Source: Candidatus Aenigmatarchaeota archaeon (lineage in GTDB: Archaea; Aenigmatarchaeota; Aenigmatarchaeia; CG10238-14; SCSR01). Taken from it: a stretch of DNA of 64,000 nucleotides. A program made the position numbers and the translations under genes. Under the pieces are notes generated by a model that did no database searches, was not told the DNA's origin, and saw only the letters and a list, made by a program, of their open reading frames with translations. Shown piece by piece: positions 6,975 through 47,108 of this stretch. Within the stretch, counting starts at the first letter, position 1. The number at the start of each line of letters is the position of its first letter. The DNA is taken from positions 9,684-73,683 of the forward strand of contig JAVZGQ010000001.1 in assembly GCA_038998585.1 (NCBI GenBank), in the 5' to 3' direction.

Positions 6975-7708
6975 ATGTTAATAGCAGGTATCGATGAGGC
7001 TGGTAGAAAACGATAAGTCTGGAGGATTTTCGTTTGCCATAAGGTGCTCTCATCGGTCCGATGGTCATAGCTGGAGTTGTGATAGACGATAAAGACGAGA
7101 AGAAACTTAAAAAAATAGGAGTGAAGGATTCTAAGCTTTTATCTCCAAGAAGAAGGGAAGAACTTGCCAAAAAAATAGAAGAAATAGCAAAGAATATTGT
7201 TGTTTTAAGAGTCCAGCCTTGCAAAATAGATTCTTATCGTGCTAAAGGTATAAATTTGGATAAAATAGAAGCCATGAAGATGGCAGAAATAATTGGGATG
7301 TTTGGTGCAAAAAAAGTTTTCATCGATTCTTTGGAACAAAATGCAAAAAAATTCGAAAATCTAATCAGGAGTTTTTTAAATGAAAGAGATCTTGAGCTAA
7401 TTGTTAAAAATTATTTGGACGAATCAATACCAGTCGTATCTGCAGCTAGTATAATTGCCAAAGTTGAACGCGATGCTGCAATAGAAGAGATAAAGAAAAA
7501 AGAGGGAACAGATTTTGGAGTGGGGTACAGTCATGATCCTAGAACTATAGAATTTGTTGAGAGATTGATAAAAGAAGGAAAAGGAAAACTTCCCTCTTAT
7601 GTTAGGCAATCGTGGATAACAACCCAAGAATTAAAGAAGAGATCTCTTCAACAAAAAATTAAAGATTTCTTTAAAAAAGACGAAAAAATTAAAAGGGAAA
7701 AAGTATGA
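6975..7708 (+). CDS. rnhB: ribonuclease HII, coding sequence interrupted by a 35-nt insertion (frame shifts after DEAGR)
   Basis: ATG at 6975 with an SD-like aggggtga; encodes MLIAGIDEAGR then KR-stop; the downstream frame resumes at 7043 with GALIGPMVIAGVV...; removing 7008-7042 restores the canonical DEAGRG-xx-IGP motif. Confidence 0.7.
7008..7042 (+). other. 35-nt insertion in rnhB forming a hairpin (aaacga-16nt-tcgttt) with an in-frame TAA
   Basis: 6-bp perfect stem aaacga/tcgttt; 35 nt is not a multiple of 3; flanking codons match conserved RNase HII residues. Confidence 0.6.
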
Positions 7709-7956
7709 AAATTGAGCAAAAAATAGTGACAGTTTACACAATCCTGGGTTTAATTTTAGGATTCTTGACAAATTATTTACATAAAATTTTTGGGTTGGCT
7801 GCCGCAGTAGCAATTTCATTTGCCATTTATTTTTCTTCTTTAACTCTTCTCTCCACTTTTGTGAATAAGAGAACCATGCTATTTTATAACAGTTTCATCA
7901 CTTTCTTTTTACTTTGGTTGACAATATGGATTTTATTTTATAATTTGGGTGTTTGA
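7705..7956 (+). CDS. small membrane protein (83 aa)
   Basis: Two predicted TM helices; start overlaps the rnhB stop (ATGA) and its stop abuts the aspS start. Confidence 0.4.
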   Translation: MKIEQKIVTVYTILGLILGFLTNYLHKIFGLAAAVAISFAIYFSSLTLLSTFVNKRTMLFYNSFITFFLLWLTIWILFYNLGV

Positions 7957-9261
7957 ATGAGAAGAATTTTCACTAAAGAGCTGGCGAAGTTTGTTGGAAA
8001 AAGGGTAAATATTTTTGGTTGGGTCCACGATGTCAGATTTTTAGGTAAAATTAATTTTTTAATTCTAAGAGATAGGGAAGGGATGGTTCAAGTTATTGCT
8101 CAAAAGGATAAAATCTCAGAAGAGGCTTTCAATTCTATAAAAAAACTTCATCAAGAAGACGTTGTTTCAATTCAAGGGAAAGTCGTGGAGAGTAAAGTAA
8201 AAAAGGGAGTTGAAGTTTTGCTAGAGAGTATAGAGGTTGTAAGCAAAGCACATGTTCCATTGCCTCTAGATCCAAGATGGGTGACACCAGCAAACTTGGA
8301 TACGAGGTTAGAGTGGAGACCATTAGACTTGAGGAGAAAAGATAACATTGCCATATTTAGAATACAGGCAAAAATTGTTGAAGGAATGACAGAATTTTTA
8401 AGAAAGAAAGGCTTCTTACAAGTTTTCACACCATCTCTAATTGGTGGGATTTCTGAAGGTGGTGCGGATGTTTTCAAAATAAATTTTTTTGGTAAGGAAG
8501 CTTTCCTAAGGCAAGATCCACAACTACATAGACAACTGTTGATATTAGCAGGATTTGAAAAAATTTTTGATGTTGGTGCAAACTGGAGGGCAGAGCCTTC
8601 CGACACACCATACCATTTAGCAGAACACAGAAGCATAGCTCCTGAGCTTGTGTTGAAGGATGAAAGTGATATGATGAAATTGGAAGAAGAGATGGTAAGA
8701 TATGGGATAAAAAAAATTATAGAGGAATGTGGTGACGAGCTCAAAACCCTTGGTAAAGAAATAGAAATTCCTAAAAAATCTTTCCCAGAGCTGAGATTCC
8801 CAAAAATCTATGATATATTGAAAGAATATGGTAAAGAACTACCTTTTGGTTCAGATGTAGATAAGGAAGCTGAAAAAATACTATTGAAATATGTTAAAGA
8901 AAAATTCAAGCATGATTTCTTTTTCATAAACAGATTTCCATCAAAAATTAAGCCTTTTTATGTCATGCGTGTAGATGATGAACCTGAATGGGCTAGAAGT
9001 GTTGACCTGATTTTTAAAGGGCTGGAAGTGTCTTCAGGGGGTCAGAGAGAACATAGGTACGAAAAAATAATTCAACAGGTGAAAGAAAAGGGCATGAATC
9101 TAGAGCATATAAAATGGTTTACAGAACATTTTAAGTATGGCGCTCCTCCCCATGGAGGCTTTAGCTTGGGTTTAGAAAGGTTTACTATGCAGCTCCTTGA
9201 TATAGTGAATATAAAAGAGGCAGTTCTTTTCCCCAGATATTTAACAAGAATATTACCATAA
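7957..9261 (+). CDS. aspS: aspartyl-tRNA synthetase (archaeal type)
   Basis: 434 aa class IIb aaRS: N-terminal OB anticodon-binding domain, motifs 1-3, C-terminal GGFSLGLERFTMQLL...LFPR. Confidence 0.75.
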   Translation: MRRIFTKELAKFVGKRVNIFGWVHDVRFLGKINFLILRDREGMVQVIAQKDKISEEAFNSIKKLHQEDVVSIQGKVVESKVKKGVEVLLESIEVVSKAHVPLPLDPRWVTPANLDTRLEWRPLDLRRKDNIAIFRIQAKIVEGMTEFLRKKGFLQVFTPSLIGGISEGGADVFKINFFGKEAFLRQDPQLHRQLLILAGFEKIFDVGANWRAEPSDTPYHLAEHRSIAPELVLKDESDMMKLEEEMVRYGIKKIIEECGDELKTLGKEIEIPKKSFPELRFPKIYDILKEYGKELPFGSDVDKEAEKILLKYVKEKFKHDFFFINRFPSKIKPFYVMRVDDEPEWARSVDLIFKGLEVSSGGQREHRYEKIIQQVKEKGMNLEHIKWFTEHFKYGAPPHGGFSLGLERFTMQLLDIVNIKEAVLFPRYLTRILP

Positions 9262-32036: not shown

Positions 32037-32553
32037 ACTAATACTAAATAATAATAAAGTAATTAAAGTTTGTTGTTAGTGCAAATAAGTTGATGTGAAT
32101 AATATAGGACAAGAAAAGAAAAAAAAGAAAGTTTGCCTATAAAAATTAGGCATATTAGACGTGGTTTTTAGGCAGAAGGAGTTGTTTGTTCCTCAGGTTT
32201 TGGCTCCTCTTTCTTTTTCTTTGCCATTCTCTCACCCCTTTATATTTTTTCATCCTTCTTGGACGAAGGAATCATCTTTATTAACAGCATAAAAAATAGG
32301 TAAGATAAAGATGACCGATAACTTTAAGTAGAAGTTCTACCATCTTCTTACTCTTAAGCTTTTCGGATAAGCTTAAATTTAAGGAATACAATAAAAAAGA
32401 CCTTATTTTTAGATTCCATTACAATATTAATTTGTTCTTTTAGATGGACATCAATAAGTTTCTTTATGACTTTTTAATTAAGGCCCATATTTTTAAGGAT
32501 ATGTCAGGAATTCATCTGAGAATCTGGCCATCAAAAATAAAAAATAGGAAACT

Positions 32554-32651
32554 TGCAGGGGGTGGGATTCGAACCCACGAAGGCACTAAGCCACTAGGTT
32601 TCCTCTTAACACCTAAGCCTAGCCCGATTGACCAGACTACGGGACCCCTGC
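32554..32651 (-). tRNA. tRNA-Leu(UAG) with ~12-nt intron in the anticodon loop
   Basis: Acceptor GCAGGGG/CCCCUGC-A, T-arm GUGGG-UUCGAAU-CCCAC, long variable arm; anticodon stem CUAGG/CCUAG encloses 19 nt (CUUAGG + 12-nt intron + A). Confidence 0.7.
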
Positions 32652-32711
32652 AATATTTGAGATAAGTTTTCTAGAAATTAAATCTTTGTTGTTTTTTATT
32701 TCAGGGACTAA

Positions 32712-35136: not shown

Positions 35137-35241
35137 AATTTATCTTTAGTTGGCTACTATTTAAATATTGCTTTTGTTCCTTTTGTTATTCCATATTCTG
35201 ATCAATAGGGTGTAATCTGATAGATTCATAAAAGAAATGTA

Positions 35242-35327
35242 TGGGCCTGGAGGGATTCGAACCCCCAACTCGAGGTTTCACCAAAAAACCGAAGCCTCGC
35301 CGGATATCCAAGTTTCCACACAGGCCC
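35242..35327 (-). tRNA. tRNA-Arg(UCG) with 12-nt intron after position 37
   Basis: Acceptor GGGCCUG/CAGGCCC-A, D-arm UGGA/UCCG, anticodon stem CGAGG/CCUCG enclosing CUUCGG + UUUUUUGGUGAA + A, T-arm GGGGG-UUCGAAU-CCCUC. Confidence 0.65.
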
Positions 35328-35606
35328 AATAATAGGTTGTCTTTTATTTAAAAAAAACTTGTGAGTATAAAAAATCAATTCTATCAATAAAATTAAAAAA
35401 TAAAAAAAGAGCGGGGATCAGAATTCTTCTGATTCCTCTTCCCCTATAAAGAGGTCTTCATCTTCGAAGGGATCCCACAGGTCTTCATTATCTTCTTTCA
35501 TCAGCCTCTCCTCCGCAAACCCATTTCTCCCAGGTCTAGAGTGTGAAACATAAAGCTAAGAGAGAAATAAGTTTTCCTGAACAAAGTGGGTTTGCTTATG
35601 GATAGA

Positions 35607-38858: not shown

Positions 38859-39306
38859 ATTATTATGATATTTGACTGACTATTTAAGCATTCTCATTCT
38901 CTGAGATACGAATCGATAGGATTTATTAATTCTTTAAAACACGCCATCGGTGGGACATTCAAAGAATTAGACTCCTACCCTTATTTTAAAATTACAGGTT
39001 GAAATTAAAAAACCTATTGGTTTCCAATATTTTTATTCTTTCAACATTTCTTAACAATTGTGAAGAAGAAATCCGAATGGCAAACAACTCCGATAAGAAG
39101 TTATAAGTATGCCTTCACTCCTGAAGAGATCAAAAAGATACTAGAAGTTGCAAAACCACACAGTTTCAGGTATACTGCTTATTGCTGACTCTCTTACTTA
39201 TTTCAAACATTTGAAAAATTATGATTCGATAAATAATGTTCTGTATAGTTTTAATAGTTTTAAAAGTTTTTTATAAATTTTATTGTTAAGATTTAATTAG
39301 AACTAT

Positions 39307-40017
39307 ATGCCTCAATTATTAAAAAAGTATGATGAAACATTAATAGAAACCATAAAAAGATACAATGAAATAGCTCCTCATTACAGTAGAGATGAGAGAG
39401 GAAAACTAGATAATGACCAAATTTTTCACTTAAAAAAGTTTATAAATTTTGTAGGATCACCCCCAAGAAAAATTTTAGATGCAGGTTGTGGCACAGGGAA
39501 AGACATTCTTTATCTTTCTTCATATGGATACGAACTTTTTGGAATAGATTTATCTTCTGGTATGTTAGAGGAGGCATTAAAAGTTGTGTATAACAAGAAT
39601 AACATACATTTACTAAGAGAAGATTTTAGGTATATGAGTTTTAGTAATTTTGTATTTGATGGTATATGGTGTAGTGCATCTCTGGTTCATTTGCCATATA
39701 AAGATAAACAAATAGCTCTTCAAGAATTTAATAGGGTTTTGAAAAAAGGGGAAATACTTTCCATAGGAATTCAAAATCTTTTATGTATAGATCGCTTAAT
39801 TCGTATTTTCAAATCTTATATAAGAAGGCCTATATATTCGTTAACCAAAACCTTCCTTTATAAAATGGAACTCGGATATGCCTACTATGATAAACGTCAT
39901 TGGTTCTTTCCGACAAAACCGTCTTTAATAAGGCTCGTAGAAGATGCGGGTTTTGAGATCATAGAAAGCAATAATGTTTTTTCAAAAAGGTTAAGAATCT
40001 ATGCTATAAAAAAATAA
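39307..40017 (+). CDS. class I SAM-dependent methyltransferase
   Basis: LDAGCGTGKD motif I; Methyltransf_11-like. Confidence 0.6.
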   Translation: MPQLLKKYDETLIETIKRYNEIAPHYSRDERGKLDNDQIFHLKKFINFVGSPPRKILDAGCGTGKDILYLSSYGYELFGIDLSSGMLEEALKVVYNKNNIHLLREDFRYMSFSNFVFDGIWCSASLVHLPYKDKQIALQEFNRVLKKGEILSIGIQNLLCIDRLIRIFKSYIRRPIYSLTKTFLYKMELGYAYYDKRHWFFPTKPSLIRLVEDAGFEIIESNNVFSKRLRIYAIKK

Positions 40018-40019
40018 AT

Positions 40020-40511
40020 ATGGATGTAGCAATTAAATTCGTATACTTATTAAAAAATATGGGAATTAATTTCGCTTCAGGTGTTCCTTGCGCTGTTCAA
40101 AAAGAAATAATTAAATATCTTTCAAATGATCCGGATATCATTCATATTCCAGCTACAAGAGAAGAAGAGGCAATAGGTATAACGGCAGGCGCATATTTGG
40201 GAGGAAAAAAACCTGTGTTTTATATGCAAAACTCAGGGCTTGGAAATTCTATAAATGCTATTACCTCATTATTAATAGCTTACAAAATTCCAGTCTTACT
40301 TTTAATTACATGGAGAGGATGTCCTGGAGAAGATGCACCACAACACTTACCTATGGGGGAAGCTACTCCAATGATTTTAAATAGTCTAAAAATACCCTTT
40401 CAAGTTATTACTAAAGAAAACATGGAAAAAGTAGTTTCCTTATCATTTGAATATATGAAAAAAAATTCATTACCTGTGGCTATTCTTTTTATAAGAGGCT
40501 TCTCTTTATGA
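40020..40511 (+). CDS. sulfopyruvate/phosphonopyruvate decarboxylase-like TPP enzyme, alpha (N-terminal pyrimidine-binding) subunit
   Basis: 163 aa ComD/Ppd-N-like; GVPCAV, TREEEAIGITAGAYLGGKKP. Confidence 0.6.
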   Translation: MDVAIKFVYLLKNMGINFASGVPCAVQKEIIKYLSNDPDIIHIPATREEEAIGITAGAYLGGKKPVFYMQNSGLGNSINAITSLLIAYKIPVLLLITWRGCPGEDAPQHLPMGEATPMILNSLKIPFQVITKENMEKVVSLSFEYMKKNSLPVAILFIRGFSL

Positions 40512-41074
40512 AAAGAGAAGATGCAGTCAAGTTAATATCTAAGGTATTGAAAGATAGGGAAAATGTTACAATAATTTCTTCTACAGGATTGATAAGTAGA
40601 GAATTATTTAGAATAAACGATAGTCCTCAAAATTTTTATATGACCGGATCTATGGGATTGGCATCTTCGATAGGATTGGGTTTAGCAATAGCACATACTA
40701 ATAGAAAAATCATTATCATCGAAGGAGACGGAAGTTTATTAATGAACATGGGTTCACTTGCAACAATTGGACACATTTCACCTAAAAATTTAATTCACAT
40801 TGTTTTAGATAACAATTCTTATGAGTCTAGTGGCGGTGAATGTACTGTTTCTAACACGGCTAACCTTGATAGTGTAGCAAAAATAGTTGGATATAAAAAT
40901 ACAGCAAAAGTTATTTGTGAAAAAGAATTAGAAAAAACTTTGATAGAATCACTTGATATAGATGGTCCTACATTTATACTTGTTAAAATCGAAAAAAGTG
41001 ATAAAAAAGATTTACCTAGAATACTAAATTTGGTGGAAATAAAAAATCGATTTATGAAATATTTATCTTCTTAG
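40508..41074 (+). CDS. sulfopyruvate/phosphonopyruvate decarboxylase-like TPP enzyme, beta (TPP-binding) subunit
   Basis: GSMGLASSIGLGLA...IIEGDGSLLMNMGSLATIG (the GDG...N TPP motif); start overlaps the alpha-subunit stop. Confidence 0.6.
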   Translation: MKREDAVKLISKVLKDRENVTIISSTGLISRELFRINDSPQNFYMTGSMGLASSIGLGLAIAHTNRKIIIIEGDGSLLMNMGSLATIGHISPKNLIHIVLDNNSYESSGGECTVSNTANLDSVAKIVGYKNTAKVICEKELEKTLIESLDIDGPTFILVKIEKSDKKDLPRILNLVEIKNRFMKYLSS

Positions 41075-41727
41075 TACTTTTTTTGTCCTAACAAGCAATA
41101 ATAGTTTTCTGAATCTACCCAAAAGTCTACAACATCAAAATTTTTGAACACATCTAGCAAAATCTTTTTGTTGAATCTATAATGCGGCATATTTTTTTCT
41201 GGACCACCTAAAATTACATAAGTTCGAGGCCCAATCCATTTGATTCCATAGAGTTTTTCCTTCGGTATATATTTTTTAGATAGATGTTTATGCACAGTTA
41301 TAAAAATGAAGCCTTTTGGTTTTAGAATTCTTTCCATTTCTCTTACACATCTCTTTATCCATCTAATTCTCCCATGATTAAGAGTTCTAATACTTATTAT
41401 TGCATCAAAAAAATCAGTTAGATAGGGCAATTTCTTGTATATGTCACCAATTTGTAAATTAGCCTTTAATTTCTCTTTTTTAAGCCATTCTTTTGCTATT
41501 TTTATACCATAATAAGCTATGTCAATCCCGTAAGCTTCAAAACCATTTTTGAGTAGATAGATTAAGTGTCTTCCAGAACCACAACCTAAATCTAGTACTC
41601 TTTTAACTTTATGTTTTTTAAAAAAATTTACAACCTTTGGTATATCTTCTTGTGGGGTTCTAAATATTTTCCCTTTTTCTTTAAAAATTTTATTCCAAGC
41701 ATTTTTATTTAATTTTTCCATTTTCAA
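41071..41727 (-). CDS. class I SAM-dependent methyltransferase
   Basis: VLDLGCGSGRH motif I. Confidence 0.6.
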   Translation of the reverse strand: MKMEKLNKNAWNKIFKEKGKIFRTPQEDIPKVVNFFKKHKVKRVLDLGCGSGRHLIYLLKNGFEAYGIDIAYYGIKIAKEWLKKEKLKANLQIGDIYKKLPYLTDFFDAIISIRTLNHGRIRWIKRCVREMERILKPKGFIFITVHKHLSKKYIPKEKLYGIKWIGPRTYVILGGPEKNMPHYRFNKKILLDVFKNFDVVDFWVDSENYYCLLGQKKY

Positions 41728-41740
41728 AATATTTTTTATC

Positions 41741-42193
41741 TCAAACTTTATAAACTTTACCTTTTTTGAAATAATATGTTTTTTTATCTGCAGTTAAAAT
41801 ACCAACAAGAATAATACCCTTTATATACGATCCTAAAAGAGCAGCATGATATCTCACACCCTGAGATTTATTGATTTTTATTTTTCGTATAGGGGGCACA
41901 AAATATTGTGATACATGTGTAAGATCTCCGGTTTCATTAATAAAATGAAACCCATCGTGGAGAGTGTTATTTTTTCTTGAAATCTTTAAAAGAAAATCTA
42001 TTGCTGAAGAGTTTTTTATGTTTATCTTATTTTTTGGTAATTTATACATTGGTCGCAAACTAAAATGTGGTATGTTTGAGAAATATCTCGAGTTATATAA
42101 TATTAGTCCCATCCCTGAAAAGTTGTTTATTTCCTTTGATTTTAATTTTATTTCCTTGAGTAATTTTATAAACAGATTAATTATAAATCTCAT
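41741..42193 (-). CDS. minimal stand-alone diadenylate cyclase (DAC/DisA_N) domain protein
   Basis: 150 aa; GMGLILY (GALIVI-like), LHDGFHFI (HDGAVII-like), GVRYHAAL (GTRHRAA-like). Confidence 0.5.
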   Translation of the reverse strand: MRFIINLFIKLLKEIKLKSKEINNFSGMGLILYNSRYFSNIPHFSLRPMYKLPKNKINIKNSSAIDFLLKISRKNNTLHDGFHFINETGDLTHVSQYFVPPIRKIKINKSQGVRYHAALLGSYIKGIILVGILTADKKTYYFKKGKVYKV

Positions 42194-42245
42194 GGTACTT
42201 TATGCTATAATAATGTTTTTGTATTTATTTTTATTATAACAAATT

Positions 42246-43322
42246 GTGTTAAAAAACATAGCACATGCTAAAGAACTTTCAAAAAAATTTAAAATCCCAG
42301 TAGAGGATATTTTACTTATTGCTCTTAACTGTTCAGGTATTAACACAAACCTACCTTTTAAAAGAATCAGATTTAGATTAAGGTTAAATAGTATTCCTTC
42401 AGAAGAATTTTATCTTGGTTTGCCTGTTCATTCAGATTCACCATTTTACTTGTCACAAGAAAAATCTCAATTATTTTTCAATAATAATTTAATTGGCTTT
42501 GTAAATGAAGTAGAAAATGATACTTGTGATTCGACTTATTTTAGAAGAAATAAAACCTACTTAACACTAAACTCAAATTCAAGAAGCAAATGTTATGGAT
42601 GTAAGTTTTGTGGGGTGATTAATCAAGACCCTAACGATGAATATAACTTAATAACTAAAAGCAGGCTCATTAATTTTCTTAAAAAATTTTTGAAGAGCAA
42701 CAACCTAAAAGATTTTTCTCATTTAGTAGGAGTTGGTATTTGTACAGGTTGTTTTGAAAATGAAGAAAAAACTCTAGAGCATATACTGCTAGTAAGGAAA
42801 GTTATGAGAAAATTTAAATTTGATAAGGAGTTAATCTACATTGGTTCTCAAATCACATCTAGAAGTAGTTTAGATATAATTAAAGAAAATGCAACTCCAT
42901 TTTCACTATCTCTTGCTTTAGAATGTTTTATGAGGCGTAAAGAGTTATTAAAATCAATTAAATCTAAAATAACTTTAAGGATGGGTAGAAAAATCCTTAA
43001 GGAATCTATAGAAAGGGGTTTTTATTCTACAATATTTTATATTATAGGCTTAGACTCACTAGAAGTAGTTATTAAAGAGTTTGAAAAATTTTTACCATAC
43101 ATGAATAGGTTCCCAGTGATAAATCTATTTCAACCTTACACTTCATACCAAAAAAATTTAAGGGATCCTGATGCTTGGAGCATTGAATATTATTTAGAAA
43201 TTCGGAAGAAATTAGAAGAATTATTTCTTCCCACATCTCTTAGACCAAGACCTTGGGAAAATTATAGACCTTTATGGTATCTAACATTTGGAAACGAACG
43301 TATAAACGACATAAGAATATAA
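42246..43322 (+). CDS. putative Fe-S enzyme (atypical CYGCKFC cysteine cluster; radical-SAM-like?)
   Basis: 358 aa; cluster C-x2-C-x2-C, not the canonical Cx3Cx2C; no other homology recognised. Confidence 0.35.
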   Translation: MLKNIAHAKELSKKFKIPVEDILLIALNCSGINTNLPFKRIRFRLRLNSIPSEEFYLGLPVHSDSPFYLSQEKSQLFFNNNLIGFVNEVENDTCDSTYFRRNKTYLTLNSNSRSKCYGCKFCGVINQDPNDEYNLITKSRLINFLKKFLKSNNLKDFSHLVGVGICTGCFENEEKTLEHILLVRKVMRKFKFDKELIYIGSQITSRSSLDIIKENATPFSLSLALECFMRRKELLKSIKSKITLRMGRKILKESIERGFYSTIFYIIGLDSLEVVIKEFEKFLPYMNRFPVINLFQPYTSYQKNLRDPDAWSIEYYLEIRKKLEELFLPTSLRPRPWENYRPLWYLTFGNERINDIRI

Positions 43323-43336
43323 CACCGAGTGATTAA

Positions 43337-43954
43337 ATGGGTAGGGACTTTTTACAAAAAACAATTAATGAATTATTTGAGTTATGGACTAGTAACTTGG
43401 ATACAAAAAGAAGTAGAATTAATATTTTTGAAAAAATAAGAGACATGCCTTTTGAAGTAATGCCCAATATATCTTTAGATTATGAAAAAAGTATAGAGTC
43501 AATTCTTGTTTATAAAAAGGGTTCTTGTACTTCAAAACACTTTCTTTTAGGAGAGTTATACAAAAGATTATACATTCCAATTAAATATGTGACGTATGTA
43601 TTTTACTGGTATGACTTAGAAGTTTCATATCCAATTAAATTAAAAAAACTTGCCTCAAAATTACCAGAACAGTATCACCTTGCATGTATAGCATATATTG
43701 AAGAGCGAAATGTGCTAATCGATGCTACATGGGACTTAGCTTTAAAGAAAGTAGGTTTTACTGTAAATGAGCAGTGGGATGGTATAAATGATACATTAAA
43801 TTCAATCAAACCTATAGATATGATTGTTCATGATACTCCAGAAGAAAGAATAGATTATCTTAAAGCAAAAATAAAAAATAATACAAACCCCTTGATTAGT
43901 AAATTTTATTGTGAGCTGAATAGATGGTTAAATGAAATTAGAAGTGGTAAGTAA
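43337..43954 (+). CDS. transglutaminase-like superfamily protein (putative cysteine protease fold)
   Basis: KKGSCTSKHFLLGELYKRLYIP resembles the G.C...A.L...LLR..GIP transglutaminase-core motif. Confidence 0.4.
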   Translation: MGRDFLQKTINELFELWTSNLDTKRSRINIFEKIRDMPFEVMPNISLDYEKSIESILVYKKGSCTSKHFLLGELYKRLYIPIKYVTYVFYWYDLEVSYPIKLKKLASKLPEQYHLACIAYIEERNVLIDATWDLALKKVGFTVNEQWDGINDTLNSIKPIDMIVHDTPEERIDYLKAKIKNNTNPLISKFYCELNRWLNEIRSGK

Positions 43955-44173
43955 AACTGGTTTTATGAACAATATTTGTAATTTGTATCCGTAGACTCTG
44001 TTTATTAAAATTTAAAGTATATTCTTTTACTCCCGGGAATATATTTAAAGTATGGGTTAGATTAAAATATTTTTGACTACGATTATGTAATTAGAAACCC
44101 CTTTAACAACTATATATTTTAGAGCTATAATCAAAAAAGTTTGAAATATTTGTCCTAAAAGTTTTCTAAAAAT

Positions 44174-44395
44174 TTAAAAAAAACATAAATATTTTTCTAT
44201 CCTTCTTTTTGAATAGTTGTTCGCTTCAAGCTTTCTCCAAAACTCTAACACACTTTCATAAGTTTTGACATCTATTTGTCTGAGAACCTCTAAGTTTGAT
44301 TTGATTCTGTGTTCTCGAGTATACAGGATCTTCCATGTTTTTAGCCTTATTCTACTTGCTAATAAATGCCAAAATGGGAATTGAAGAAATAAGCA
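44174..44395 (-). pseudogene. tyrosine-recombinase (integrase) N-terminal-domain fragment abutting tRNA-Asn
   Basis: ...NLEVLRQIDVKTYESVLEFWRKLEANNYSKRRIEKYLCFF resembles the SAM-like N-terminal domain of integrases; the called ORF's first 16 codons are tRNA sequence; there is no catalytic domain. Confidence 0.35.
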
Positions 44396-44500
44396 CGCCC
44401 TCGGTGGGATTTGAACCCACGACCTACCGGTTAACAGCCTCACCTTCCTTCTGGAATCGGGTGCTCTACCACTGAGCTTCCCCCGTATAACTACGAGGGC
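44396..44500 (-). tRNA. tRNA-Asn(GUU) with two short insertions (putative introns: ~14 nt after position 9, ~20 nt at 29/30)
   Basis: Acceptor GCCCUCG/CGAGGGC-G, D-arm GCUC-AGUGGUA-GAGC, loop CUGUUAA, 3' anticodon stem CCGGU, T-arm GUGGG-UUCAAAU-CCCAC; the 5' anticodon stem ACC..GG is split by CGAUUCCAGAAGGAAGGUGA; GUUAUACGGGGGAA lies between U8A9 and the D-stem; the leader carries a GCCCUCG-AGAGA-GCCCUCG direct repeat. Confidence 0.5.
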
Positions 44501-44569: not shown

Positions 44570-45856
44570 TCAGGGATACACTCTGTTTACTAGTCTTGGA
44601 AAAGCAATCGCATCCCTTATATGTTTGAGCTTACAAATCCACATCACAAATCTTTCAATTCCCAAACCAAACCCTGCATGTCGAACAGAGCCATATTTTC
44701 TCAAGTCCAAATACCATTTATAGGCAGAGACGTCGAGCTTCTCCTCTTCTATCCTTTTCATCAACTCTTCAAAACTTTCAATCCTTTCCCCAGAACCAAT
44801 TATTTCTCCATAGCCTTCTGGAGCCAGCATATCAACACTTAAAGTTACATTTGGGTTTTGTGGATCAGGTTTGTGATAGAATGCCTTTATTCCCTTTGGG
44901 AAATGTGTGACAAAAAAAGGAGTTTTAAACTCAAGTGCTAAAACTTTTTCTTCATCTGCCCCGAGATCATCCCCATATTTTACCTTCACCCCTTTTTCTT
45001 GCAGAATTTTTATCGCTTCTTCATATTTTATTCTTGGGAAAGGGGGCACCATCTTCAAAAAATCTTCAGGATTTCTTCCCAATTCTTTCAACTCAATTTC
45101 ACACTCTCTAGCAACTTTTTGTAAGATATGGACCACCAATTCTTCTTCAATCTTTACTAATTCTTCAAAGCCACAAAAAGGCATCTCAGCCTCAAGATGC
45201 CAGAATTCTGTTAAATGTCTTCTCGTCCTAGACTTCTCTGCCCTGAATGATGGAGCTATCGTGTAACATCTTCCAAAACCAAAAATCATTGCTTCTCCAT
45301 ACAATTGCCAAGACTGGGTCAAGTAGGCTTTAGAATCAAAGTACTTTAGTTCAAACAAGGTTGACCCACCTTCGCAAGCAGCCCCAACTATTATCGGCAC
45401 CTGGACTTCCAGGTAGCCATGCTCTTTAAACCATTCTCTTGCAGCTTCTAAGACTTTGGCCCTAATTTTTATTATTCTGTTCATCTTCTTACTTCTTATC
45501 CAAAAATGACGGTTGTCTAATAGAAATTCAGGACCATGATATTTTTTTCCAATCGGGAAATCTTCCATTGCTCTACTCAAAACTTTAACTTTTTCCACTA
45601 CTATTTCGTATCCATAGGGTGCTCTTTGATCTTTCTTTACTTTACCAAAAATTTCTATCGCAGATTCCAGGGGCAATTTTTCAATTTCATCAAAAGTTTT
45701 TTCATCTAACTGATCTTTCTTTAAAGTGCATTGGATGAAGCCTGTACCATCTCTTACTATCAAGAATAGAATACCGCCTGAGCTACGTTTGTTGTGAAGC
45801 CAACCTTTAATTTCAACTTCCCCTTCCAATTTCTTAAATATCTCAGCTATATCCAT
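44570..45856 (-). CDS. asnS: asparaginyl-tRNA synthetase
   Basis: 428 aa class IIb aaRS (OB domain, motifs 1-3, C-terminal AGFGLGIERFVMW...AFPR); assigned Asn rather than Asp because it is flanked by two tRNA-Asn genes and an asnA/asnC-like pair, and a distinct AspRS is at 7957. Confidence 0.65.
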   Translation of the reverse strand: MDIAEIFKKLEGEVEIKGWLHNKRSSGGILFLIVRDGTGFIQCTLKKDQLDEKTFDEIEKLPLESAIEIFGKVKKDQRAPYGYEIVVEKVKVLSRAMEDFPIGKKYHGPEFLLDNRHFWIRSKKMNRIIKIRAKVLEAAREWFKEHGYLEVQVPIIVGAACEGGSTLFELKYFDSKAYLTQSWQLYGEAMIFGFGRCYTIAPSFRAEKSRTRRHLTEFWHLEAEMPFCGFEELVKIEEELVVHILQKVARECEIELKELGRNPEDFLKMVPPFPRIKYEEAIKILQEKGVKVKYGDDLGADEEKVLALEFKTPFFVTHFPKGIKAFYHKPDPQNPNVTLSVDMLAPEGYGEIIGSGERIESFEELMKRIEEEKLDVSAYKWYLDLRKYGSVRHAGFGLGIERFVMWICKLKHIRDAIAFPRLVNRVYP

Positions 45857-45890
45857 ATAATCACATATTTTATTTTATAAAAATAAAATA

Positions 45891-45963
45891 CTGCGGCGGG
45901 GAGAATCGAACTCCCATCACCAGGTTAACAGCCTGGTATGCTAGCCTTTAGCACCACGCCGCT
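45891..45963 (-). tRNA. tRNA-Asn(GUU), intronless
   Basis: Clean cloverleaf: D-arm GUGC-UAAAGGCUA-GCAU, anticodon arm CCAGG-CUGUUAA-CCUGG, T-arm GGGAG-UUCGAUU-CUCCC, discriminator G; the 1:72 pair is an A-A mismatch. Confidence 0.75.
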
Positions 45964-46121
45964 ATAGCTCAAGCTAGGAATAAAAACAAATTCAAGGATT
46001 TTTTTATTTTGATAAAAACTGACCAAAAATTAGAACAAGTCTCGCTAAATATCGTTTTGGCAATCACCCTTCACTTTACCACCTTATAATTTTTCCCTCT
46101 TTTGTATTTAAATAATTAGCT

Positions 46122-47108
46122 CTATGGCGAAACGATTCCGGGAACTTTAGGGAAAGGAACAGCTTCCCAAATTTTTTCTATACCACAAACCCATCTTGTC
46201 AGTCTTTCCACACCAATTCCAAATCCAGAAGATGGTGGTATACCGGCCTTCAACATACCTAAATACCATTTGTACTTCTTGGGGTTTTCTCCAGTTTTTT
46301 TCATTCTTTCAACAACTTTTTGATATTCGTGTTCTCTTTCCCCTCCAGAAATAACTTCACCAAAGCCTTCTGGTAAAATCAAGTCAAAATCCCTCAATCT
46401 TTTCGTTTTTGGATCTTCAAGATAATAGAATCCTCTTGCCTTAAGAGGATAGTCGGTTATCCAGAATGGCTCAGAGTTTTGAGCTGAAAGAGCTTCTTCA
46501 GCCTCCCAAGGAATTTCTTCTTCGTCTCCCATCTTGAACCCAAGCTTCCTCACCGCCTCTACTGCTTGATGGTGAGTTAATCTTTTGAAAGGAGTTTTAG
46601 GAATTTTTATATTCCTGTTGAAAATTTTCAGCTCTTTGAAACATTTTTTCTTCAGATCTTTTAATACATAAACAATCATTTTTTCTCCTAAATACATAGA
46701 ATCTTCATAAGTGGCGTAAGCTTCTTCCAAATCAATTTGCCTGAATTCGGCCAAATGTCTTCCCGTCTGTGCAGACTTAATGGGTTCAATCCTTATGTTT
46801 GGCGAAAGAGAAAAAATTTTGTTAATAGAGGAAATTGCCATCTGCTTGTATAAGATCATACTGCTCATGAGTCTAAATTTCTGTCCATAAAAATTTATCA
46901 TCACTTGTTTCGCACCCCTTATTCCTGGGTCAGTAGCAGGACCAATTATTGGGGCAAGAATTTCTATGAACCCATGTTTTCTTAAAAATTCTCTTATGGC
47001 TGTTAAAATTTCATCTTGAATTTTAAGCATTGCTACCATTTTAGGATGTTTTAAAGTTATGTATCTATACTTGATTGAATCGAGTTTGTCAAGCTTCATA
47101 TTCATCAA
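46122..47108 (-). CDS. asnA: AsnRS-paralogous asparagine synthetase A-like protein (class II aaRS catalytic core without anticodon-binding domain)
   Basis: 328 aa; class II motifs (FRAE..., GFGIGVERL) but no N-terminal OB domain; resembles the archaeal AS-AR type. Confidence 0.5.
   Translation of the reverse strand: MMNMKLDKLDSIKYRYITLKHPKMVAMLKIQDEILTAIREFLRKHGFIEILAPIIGPATDPGIRGAKQVMINFYGQKFRLMSSMILYKQMAISSINKIFSLSPNIRIEPIKSAQTGRHLAEFRQIDLEEAYATYEDSMYLGEKMIVYVLKDLKKKCFKELKIFNRNIKIPKTPFKRLTHHQAVEAVRKLGFKMGDEEEIPWEAEEALSAQNSEPFWITDYPLKARGFYYLEDPKTKRLRDFDLILPEGFGEVISGGEREHEYQKVVERMKKTGENPKKYKWYLGMLKAGIPPSSGFGIGVERLTRWVCGIEKIWEAVPFPKVPGIVSP

Follow-up and report, generated by a model that had tools for sequence, protein, structure and literature searches.

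The 64-kb window analyzed here (64,000 nucleotides of a Candidatus Aenigmatarchaeota genome, contig JAVZGQ010000001.1, positions 9,684 to 73,683) encodes, at 41741-42193 on the negative strand, a 150-residue protein predicted to consist of a single diadenylate cyclase (DAC) domain. Among characterized proteins, the one closest to it in sequence is PanS, a minimal cyclase from the Panoptoo/PanDA antiphage system, but the partners of the archaeal protein are a radical S-adenosylmethionine (SAM)-fold enzyme, thiamine diphosphate (TPP)-dependent enzymes, and methyltransferases. Together with a transglutaminase-like protein, these genes make up a seven-gene cassette on a small low-GC islet beside a tRNA gene. 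The gene encodes a minimal DAC of the PanS-like kind, in an enzymatic context that is new, conserved, and shared across domains. It is somewhat probable, in our judgment, that this DAC catalyzes a step of nucleotidyl transfer or cyclization in an uncharacterized small-molecule pathway.

The open reading frame (ORF) begins at the most upstream in-frame ATG, and its product is identical to a database record, hypothetical protein QW423_00335 of a Candidatus Aenigmatarchaeota metagenome-assembled genome (MAG), encoded on a contig of 140 kb. No other ORF of the window carries DAC motifs. The three DAC signatures listed in the original prediction, a note made from the letters of this DNA alone, are present in the protein as FSGMGLILY, LHDGFHFI, and QGVRYHAA. 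They are not chance resemblances, because the key residues are fixed: F25, H79, D80, G81, Q96, G112, and R114 are 100% conserved in 35 distinct members of the radical-SAM-linked clade delimited below, and S122 is kept in 33 of the 35. Such invariance argues for a retained active site.

The Pfam DAC model (PF02457) matched the protein over model positions 30 to 118 of 119 with an E value of 8.8e-5 and 22.5 bits, under its gathering score of 27, and the NCBIfam models for CdaA and DacZ gave only marginal matches. The AlphaFold2 (AF2) model, for which 15 homologues were aligned, had a mean pLDDT of 87.6 and a pTM of 0.85. It consisted of one DAC domain and an N-terminal helix, without any extension, and Foldseek matched it in the PDB to CdaA, DacA, CdaM, and DisA at a probability of 1.0, with TM scores of 0.58 to 0.67 and 13 to 20% identity. 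A check against PF02457 had been proposed for this protein; the profile part of it fell short of the threshold, whereas the fold part was positive, and the modeled DAC fold is unambiguous despite the Pfam score. The claim of a minimal, stand-alone DAC that lacks any sensor or regulatory extension was thus upheld. Homologues at 38 to 57% identity are all about 150 aa long.

Compared with the canonical DACs (CdaA/DacA, DisA, CdaS, and archaeal DacZ), the protein has the same fold, at a TM score of about 0.6, and keeps the DG(A) motif and the first arginine of the RHR motif. It differs from them in its low identity and in having no membrane, sensor, or DNA-binding extension. Where canonical enzymes read DGA and RHR, it reads DGF and GVRYH, the same variants as PanS; its lid loop is extended, and its gene lies outside a housekeeping context. 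To our knowledge, DAC domains were known until August 2026 solely as signaling enzymes that make cyclic di-AMP (c-di-AMP).

A sequence search of the PDB returned one strong match, the "Panoptoo PanS synthase" (chain printed as 37jy_A, 147 aa), with 37% identity over 145 residues and an E value of 9.2e-18 for the single sequence or 6.2e-24 for the family profile. Canonical CdaA chains appeared in the same search only at an E value of about 0.4. Two preprints dated August 2026 describe PanS as a DAC of about 150 aa that constitutively makes 3'3'-cyclic UMP-AMP (cUA) or 3'3'-c-di-AMP; its product represses PanE, a two-transmembrane beta-barrel effector, which is released when phage sponges sequester the signal (Ragucci, Haley and Kranzusch, 10.64898/2026.08.10.743927; Nabhani et al., PMC13640721). 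In more than 90% of this minimal-DAC clade, the cyclase gene shares an operon with such an effector, and about half of the clade is located near the cyclic oligonucleotide-based antiphage signaling system, CBASS (10.64898/2026.08.10.743927; PMC13640721).

The residues on which PanS depends are all found in the archaeal protein. In PanS, the D, the G, the G-x-R, two phenylalanines, and a serine are conserved at 99 to 100%, and HDGFH is found in about 94% of members (PMC13640721); the signature residues of EcPanS are D68, G69, G103, R105, F22, F70, and S113. The archaeal counterparts are D80, G81, G112, R114, F25, F82, and S122, with HDGFH intact, and residues equivalent to D80, G81, G112, and R114 are needed for PanS activity (10.64898/2026.08.10.743927). 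Both proteins are a DAC domain alone, and both have FSGxG. The PanS lid loop (AQYFSPPI, A86 to I93 in RePanS) is longer than in DisA and CdaA (10.64898/2026.08.10.743927), and SQYFVPPI of the archaeal protein aligns to it, so that the two share an extended QYF(S/V)PPI loop that canonical DACs lack. Across the 35 clade members, these residues and this loop vary little or not at all.

The similarity does not extend to the surroundings or to the position within the family. An exhaustive search yielded 295 cluster representatives at an E value of 1e-3 or below. In a neighbor-joining (NJ) tree, the window DAC grouped with fusions of DACs to TPP enzymes and to methyltransferases, and RePanS was placed elsewhere. 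Among 46 distinct DACs labeled by gene context, the nearest neighbor belonged to the same context class in 43 of 43 cases, and the split between PanE-linked and radical-SAM-linked DACs had an NJ bootstrap of 52/60; the samples were modest, and their contexts were biased by the search patterns used. The two groups also differ at Gly89, at Pro48, and at the position of RePanS S90, which is Val or Ala in the radical-SAM-linked clade. From these sequence comparisons, the window DAC appears to fall in a clade sister to the PanE-linked PanS, outside the PanE-linked clade itself. The radical-SAM-linked clade occurs in archaea, candidate phyla radiation (CPR) bacteria, and Firmicutes; PanS comes mostly from Pseudomonadota. 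Cap15::DAC (PanE::PanS) fusions occurred among the lower-scoring members of the DAC family, and the one DAC match on viral contigs (L032) had a PanE-type context.

We searched for the PanS partner with a hidden Markov model (HMM) of PanE built from the N-terminal halves of five Cap15_CD_rec::DAC fusions from the representative-library search. This HMM found a PanE-like ORF immediately 3' of the DAC gene in seven proteobacterial genomes (Thiohalobacter, Polaromonas, two Acinetobacter, Achromobacter, Gilvimarinus, and Ramlibacter), but it had no match in the 64-kb window even at an E value of 10. The islet proteins contain no convincing transmembrane segments, and no convincing transmembrane helix pair was seen in any of them. 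PADLOC, run on six islet-region proteins, reported no CBASS component and solely generic methyltransferase similarity (mad2, type II methyltransferases), which we rejected as evidence of defense. Because the window has no PanE/S2TM-beta effector, the locus is not a Panoptoo system. Of the defense role envisaged in the original prediction, one part stood, in that minimal DACs do act in defense according to the PanS preprints; the other part was not supported, in that no known cyclic-nucleotide effector accompanies this DAC. The Panoptes system (mCpol OptS with OptE) resembles the locus in logic only, with a sensorless minimal nucleotide cyclase on accessory DNA, and differs from it in having another cyclase fold and a membrane effector partner, which is missing here.

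The genes around the DAC are those of a biosynthetic-looking cassette (Table 1). The neighbors named in the original prediction were all identified: two class I methyltransferases, the CYGCKFC protein, which is a radical-SAM-fold enzyme, and a transglutaminase-like protein. The same conserved cassette contains a split decarboxylase resembling ComDE and Ppd (40020-41074), which the original prediction had not mentioned. The AT-rich interval between the divergent DAC and radical-SAM-like genes is a putative shared promoter region.

Table 1. Features of the DAC cassette and of the islet that carries it (window coordinates)
Feature	Position	Strand	Remarks
Minimal DAC-fold gene	41741-42193	-	150 aa; PanS-like, radical-SAM-associated clade
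Key motifs of the DAC protein			F25-S-G-x-G29; H79-D80-G81-F82-H83; Q96-Y-F-V-P-P-I102; G112-V-R114; S122
MT_A, class I SAM-dependent methyltransferase	39307-40017	+	UbiE/MenG-like
TPP-alpha, decarboxylase alpha subunit	40020-40511	+	TIGR03845 (sulfopyruvate decarboxylase alpha)
TPP-beta, TPP-dependent decarboxylase beta subunit	40508-41074	+	ComE/Ppd C-terminal type
MT_B, class I SAM-dependent methyltransferase	41071-41727	-	13 nt 3' of DAC gene, same strand
Divergent radical-SAM-fold enzyme ("CYGCKFC" protein)	42246-43322	+	358 aa; divergent from DAC gene
Transglutaminase-like protein	43337-43954	+	205 aa; Cys64/His114/Asp129
Intergenic region between DAC and radical-SAM-like genes	42194-42245	.	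52 bp, AT-rich
Islet	38956-44390	.	5.4 kb; exactly the seven cassette genes; low GC between repeats
tRNA gene	44391-44487	-	Rfam 44403-44480; missed by ARAGORN
Decayed second copy of tRNA 3' end	38937-38955	.	17/19 bases; distal islet boundary
ORF fragment directly 3' of tRNA (candidate)	44174-44380	-	reads like tyrosine recombinase N terminus
Short ORF fragment (candidate)	39039-39185	+	"...RSYKYAFTPEEIKKILEVAKPH..."; reads like recombinase part

A search for conservation of the neighborhood, also proposed with the original prediction, found the association of the DAC with the transglutaminase-like protein, the CYGCKFC protein, and the methyltransferases conserved across genomes. The constant neighbor on contigs with DAC homologues is a protein of about 360 aa homologous to the radical-SAM-fold enzyme of the window (44% identity, E value 2e-105); this gene is the most constant partner of the DAC clade and is usually joined by a TPP-dependent enzyme and methyltransferases. 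All seven genes of the cassette are present in two other loci, one of them on a related archaeal contig (L006 and L033), where the block of radical-SAM and transglutaminase-like genes lies on the opposite side of the cluster relative to the window. The linkage of the cassette has therefore outlived a rearrangement. Two or three SAM methyltransferases belong to the conserved set. The same cassette was found in Candidatus Falkowbacteria (L018), Candidatus Parvarchaeota (L020), and gammaproteobacterial MAGs (L017).

Two further contexts were seen in bacteria. In Firmicutes (Sellimonas intestinalis BR72, Clostridium MAGs, and UBA4845), the DAC gene lies directly 5' of the radical-SAM-like gene, in a cluster that also encodes a phosphoketolase-family TPP enzyme, a HAD protein, a glycosyltransferase, a DegT aminotransferase, a PHP protein, a carrier protein, GrpB, and a Tmk-like kinase. 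In a gammaproteobacterial MAG (L019, 2665-8367), a LuxR/PAS regulator, a distant radical-SAM-like gene (395 aa), an FkbM methyltransferase, DUF5662, and a phosphoesterase of the 2H (2',5' RNA ligase) superfamily precede the DAC, and an EamA exporter follows it. This locus has no TPP enzyme; L022 and L023 look similar.

To count the associations without bias toward the DAC, we scanned metagenome contigs with the radical-SAM-like family and retained 33 loci with adequate flanks. A TPP-dependent enzyme adjoined in all 33, as a ComDE/Ppd-like alpha/beta pair in 11 and as a phosphoketolase-like (XFP) protein in 22. A DAC-like gene was present in 16 loci, 8 of the 11 alpha/beta type and 8 of the 22 phosphoketolase type, and a transglutaminase-like protein in 6 of the 11 alpha/beta-type loci. 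PanE occurred in none of the 33. Where the DAC and radical-SAM-like genes were both present in these loci, they often overlapped or lay less than 60 nt apart. In L013 (1-363 and 12862-13770), one copy of the cassette lacks the DAC and has three consecutive methyltransferases; a gene for an AbiEii toxin lies about 7 kb upstream of it, and the gene directly downstream encodes an EamA transporter. In Clostridium beijerinckii (L011), the site of the DAC gene in related Firmicutes clusters is taken up by a gap of 926 nt (7075-8001) upstream of the radical-SAM-like gene. Nothing DAC-like is encoded there, and any ORF is shorter than 30 aa; the stretch may represent a gene in decay or a noncoding element.

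In several loci, the DAC is fused to one of its neighbors. It forms the C terminus of TPP-beta in six proteins or loci (P0144, P0145, L017, L020, L041, and L051), it follows a HAD domain in three (L037, L038, and L062), and in four it carries an MT_B-type methyltransferase at its own C terminus (L012, L034, L036, and P0143). The fusion partners are the proteins encoded next to the DAC in gene order, which suggests that the DAC and these cassette enzymes act together. An apparent tandem of two DACs in L037, L038, and L062 was rejected as an artifact of the domain parser, since the sequence reads HAD::DAC.

The 358-aa partner is predicted to have the partial TIM barrel of radical SAM enzymes. 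Its AF2 model (pLDDT 95.1, pTM 0.92) matched LipA, RlmN, BioB, lysine aminomutase (LAM), HydE, MqnE, and viperin-like enzymes in Foldseek at a probability of 1.0, and its cysteine triad lies at the expected site after beta-1. It departs from the radical SAM superfamily (LipA, RlmN, BioB, MqnE, viperin) in two respects: the triad, C116-x2-C119-x2-C122, which is invariant in 52 sequences of the family, is CX2CX2C rather than the canonical CX3CX2C, and an extra beta-rich domain of about 110 aa precedes the barrel. Pfam had no match to the window protein, and some relatives matched PF04055 weakly; sequence and profile searches of the PDB with the family returned no relative, and the fold search alone was informative. 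The family comprises at least 301 clusters at 90% identity and has no characterized member. None of its members was found on the viral contigs scanned. One member (P0124, 518 aa) is fused to a GrpB domain, and GrpB is a frequent neighbor in the Firmicutes-type cluster.

The TPP enzyme of the window shares the split alpha/beta architecture of ComDE and Ppd. The alpha subunit scored 169.3 bits against the ComD model TIGR03845, over the cutoff of 147.95 bits, whereas the beta subunit remained under the cutoffs for ComE (TIGR03846; 181.1 versus 221.5 bits) and for Ppd (TIGR03297; 198.6 versus 312.5 bits). Neither coenzyme M genes nor a phosphoenolpyruvate (PEP) mutase gene lie nearby, and a phosphoketolase-family TPP enzyme substitutes in two-thirds of related clusters. 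We dropped coenzyme M or taurine-type sulfonates as the chemistry of the cassette for lack of evidence, and likewise PEP-mutase-independent phosphonates, organo-arsenic or organo-selenium compounds, and deoxy-sugars derived from 5'-deoxyadenosine. The transglutaminase-like protein is a conserved part of TPP-alpha/beta-type cassettes, and its triad C64/H114/D129 is invariant in 12 sequences. The Pfam model Transglut_core matched 5 of these 12 relatives weakly (best E value, 4.4e-4); the window protein itself had no Pfam match, and sequence and profile searches of the PDB with the family found none.

The radical-SAM/TPP core recurs in contexts typical of small-molecule biosynthesis. The radical-SAM-like family was found on about 30 Clostridium perfringens plasmids of 70 to 75 kb, including NC_007773.1, and on plasmids of Streptomyces, Nocardia, and Mycobacterium. 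On one C. perfringens plasmid (L113; NZ_CP075936.1, 28454-47518), a family member 43% identical to the window protein lies in a cluster with ABC-2 exporters, BtrH-N, adenylate-forming and adenylation enzymes, an acyl carrier protein (ACP), a HAD protein, a phosphoketolase-family protein, a PHP protein, and a methyltransferase; this version of the cluster has no DAC, and all of its genes are generically annotated. The neighbors on a Streptomyces plasmid are an enolase-like protein, a HAD protein, a phosphoketolase, a PhyH dioxygenase, a methyltransferase, and a NUDIX protein. EamA and ABC transporters beside several cassette variants suggest that a product is exported. The cyclic-nucleotide signaling and defense module seen in the locus by the original prediction is not supported by these data, since the conserved partners of the DAC are enzymes typical of small-molecule biosynthesis, three of which are fused to it elsewhere, and since the core recurs amid adenylation enzymes, carrier proteins, and exporters.

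We infer catalytic activity from the fold and the conserved residues, and a biosynthetic rather than a regulatory role from the fusions and contexts; the substrates and products named here are likewise proposals. Like those of PanS, CdaA, and DisA, the two DAC protomers would position nucleoside triphosphates opposite each other, and the DG motif with a metal and the conserved arginine would catalyze attack of a 3'-OH on an alpha-phosphate to form a 3'-5' phosphodiester. The product might be a dinucleotide, either cyclic or linear, or else an intermediate of the pathway in nucleotidylated form. It would be tailored by the radical-SAM enzyme, by the methyltransferases, and, depending on the variant, by HAD, PHP, or 2H phosphoesterases, and the TPP enzyme would supply or process a unit of two or three carbons derived from a keto acid. 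The end product would be a small molecule or a surface modification, probably exported in some genomes. As a rule, Firmicutes, including Clostridia, already have CdaA. PanS is reported never to co-occur with nonimmune DACs (PMC13640721). Since this clade nevertheless sits in Clostridia, free c-di-AMP is an unlikely end product.

Several observations weigh against a catalytic step in a pathway. The PF02457 score lies under the gathering threshold, and the islet holds neither a PEP mutase gene nor a sulfopyruvate-forming gene. Position 136, which is mostly Asp in PanE-linked DACs, is variable (N/D/K) in the radical-SAM-linked clade. The fusions are also compatible with a regulatory role, since cyclase-receptor PanE::PanS fusions exist. 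Finally, 3 of the 11 TPP-alpha/beta loci and 14 of the 22 XFP-type loci in the census are cassettes without a DAC. Because such cassettes exist, the DAC is dispensable for the core chemistry, and it could act as a regulator or contribute optional tailoring.

The main rival takes up this last point. The DAC could be a signal generator whose constitutive c-di-AMP or cUA allosterically restrains or activates the neighboring enzymes, the cassette being a Panoptoo-like guard with a metabolite-making enzymatic effector. The closest characterized relatives are indeed constitutive signal synthases that negatively regulate a partner, and the archaeal protein keeps all PanS catalytic residues and the lid loop; however, none of the cassette proteins gave a match to a known domain that binds cyclic nucleotides, such as a Cap15 barrel, SAVED, or CARF. 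Fusions to enzymes fit a signal generator, given the cyclase-receptor fusions of the sister clade, but three different fused enzymes (TPP-beta, HAD, and methyltransferase) fit the fusion of pathway neighbors better than a single receptor. An optional DAC is what one would see of a regulatory add-on, although DAC-less cassettes would then lack regulation. The mobile islet and the AbiEii gene in L013 are in keeping with a guard, whereas the occurrence of the radical-SAM/TPP core in ordinary contexts like those of biosynthetic gene clusters, with exporters, and the absence of the radical-SAM-like gene from the viral contigs scanned are not. We consider a signal generator rather unlikely. A bona fide archaeal Panoptoo/PanDA system, in which PanS and a PanE S2TM-beta effector would guard against cyclic-nucleotide sponges, is barely credible: the identity to RePanS, the signature residues, and the small size of a protein borne on an islet speak for it, and the PanE, transmembrane, tree, and PADLOC results given above oppose it.

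The DAC might instead be a noncatalytic nucleotide-binding subunit that has kept the DAC pocket and that serves the radical-SAM enzyme or a methyltransferase as a scaffold or by presenting the substrate. Radical-SAM enzymes with nucleotide-handling partners are known, for example, OxsB with OxsA, and both the tight coupling of the DAC to enzymes, by overlap or fusion, and the variability of the acidic position 136 agree with such a role. It is nevertheless improbable in view of the conservation of D80, G81, G112, and R114 in 35 of 35 sequences and of the need for the equivalent residues in PanS. Still less can be said for a housekeeping c-di-AMP synthase, a stripped-down equivalent of DacZ or CdaA that would serve osmoregulation. 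DPANN genomes are reduced, and this is the only DAC-motif ORF of the window, but the gene lies on a low-GC, tRNA-flanked islet, its orthologues accompany the cassette in archaea, CPR bacteria, Proteobacteria, and Firmicutes, Firmicutes generally have CdaA in any case, and canonical DACs are matched only marginally; we hold this explanation to be very unlikely. The original prediction had taken synteny in relatives as the mark of a housekeeping gene. Synteny was found for the cassette, yet the cassette is patchy and looks horizontally acquired, so that it appears to be cargo rather than housekeeping.

With the DAC taken as a pathway enzyme, a broader and more tentative proposal is that the DAC fold was recruited from signaling to biosynthesis. 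A dinucleotide or nucleotidylated scaffold would be turned by a CX2CX2C radical-SAM enzyme, a TPP-dependent enzyme handling two-carbon units, and methyltransferases into a natural product or surface decoration that derives from nucleotides and is exported; alternatively, the cassette would be a Panoptoo-like guard with a toxic-metabolite factory as its effector. If recruitment to biosynthesis is true, it would be the first nonsignaling role of a DAC fold, with a new family of nucleotide-derived metabolites and a pathway common to DPANN archaea, CPR bacteria, Gammaproteobacteria, and gut Firmicutes; the guard with a toxic-metabolite factory would, if true, be equally new. In our search of the literature, which included both PanS preprints, a minimal DAC in a cassette with radical-SAM, TPP, and methyltransferase genes was undescribed, although the fusions may have been mentioned earlier, and no description was found of a cluster of phosphoketolase, radical SAM, PHP, and ACP genes. 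Radical SAM enzymes and methyltransferases go unmentioned in both preprints, and archaea come up in only one of them, in a different connection.

The minimal-DAC lineage has a second, undescribed branch tied to a radical-SAM enzyme with a noncanonical motif, to TPP-dependent enzymes, and to methyltransferases. This branch spans both prokaryotic domains, from ultra-small DPANN and CPR organisms to cultured human-gut bacteria such as S. intestinalis. It offers a tractable test of DAC-fold products besides c-di-AMP and cUA and an entry to the function of a large radical-SAM family that is also carried on pCPF5603-type plasmids of C. perfringens. It also bears on the accessory chemistry that reduced-genome symbionts acquire horizontally.

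The islet that carries the cassette has a GC content of 28.4%, a drop of 5 points from the 33.3 to 33.7% of its flanks, which contain housekeeping genes (FtsZ, an RsmB/F-type methyltransferase, and AsnRS). It is bounded by a direct repeat, one copy of which is the 3' end of the tRNA gene (44391-44409). The distal copy matches it at 17 of 19 positions, where none with up to 3 mismatches is expected by chance, and a fainter similarity runs on from the 19-nt repeat for about 45 nt. Given the tRNA, its repeated 3' end, and the drop in GC, the interpretation of the islet as a decayed, tRNA-targeted integrative element is well supported, in agreement with the mobile-element remnant of the original prediction. 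The cassette would have reached this archaeon as cargo of that element, which has since decayed. Related loci generally do not adjoin a tRNA gene. Pfam and PHROG scans of the two recombinase-like fragments gave no match. The fragments, one at each end of the islet, face inward in opposite orientations; this arrangement and the shift of the radical-SAM/transglutaminase block relative to L006 and L033 suggest an internal rearrangement after integration.

Other features were noted along the way. On a related archaeal contig (L005, 3210-6257, negative strand), a gene for a T2SSE/FlaI-type ATPase is split by an intein with a LAGLIDADG domain. Beyond the islet, the window encodes a 328-aa class II aminoacyl-tRNA synthetase catalytic core (tRNA-synt_2; 46122-47108, negative strand) without an anticodon-binding domain. 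It adjoins a full-length AsnRS/AspRS-type synthetase (44570-45856, negative strand) and a tRNA-Asn gene (45890-45964), and it may be an AsnA-like paralogue. ARAGORN reported tRNAs with four-base "anticodons" at 32553-32652 and 35241-35328; these two and the tRNA at the islet boundary are probably intron-containing archaeal tRNAs.

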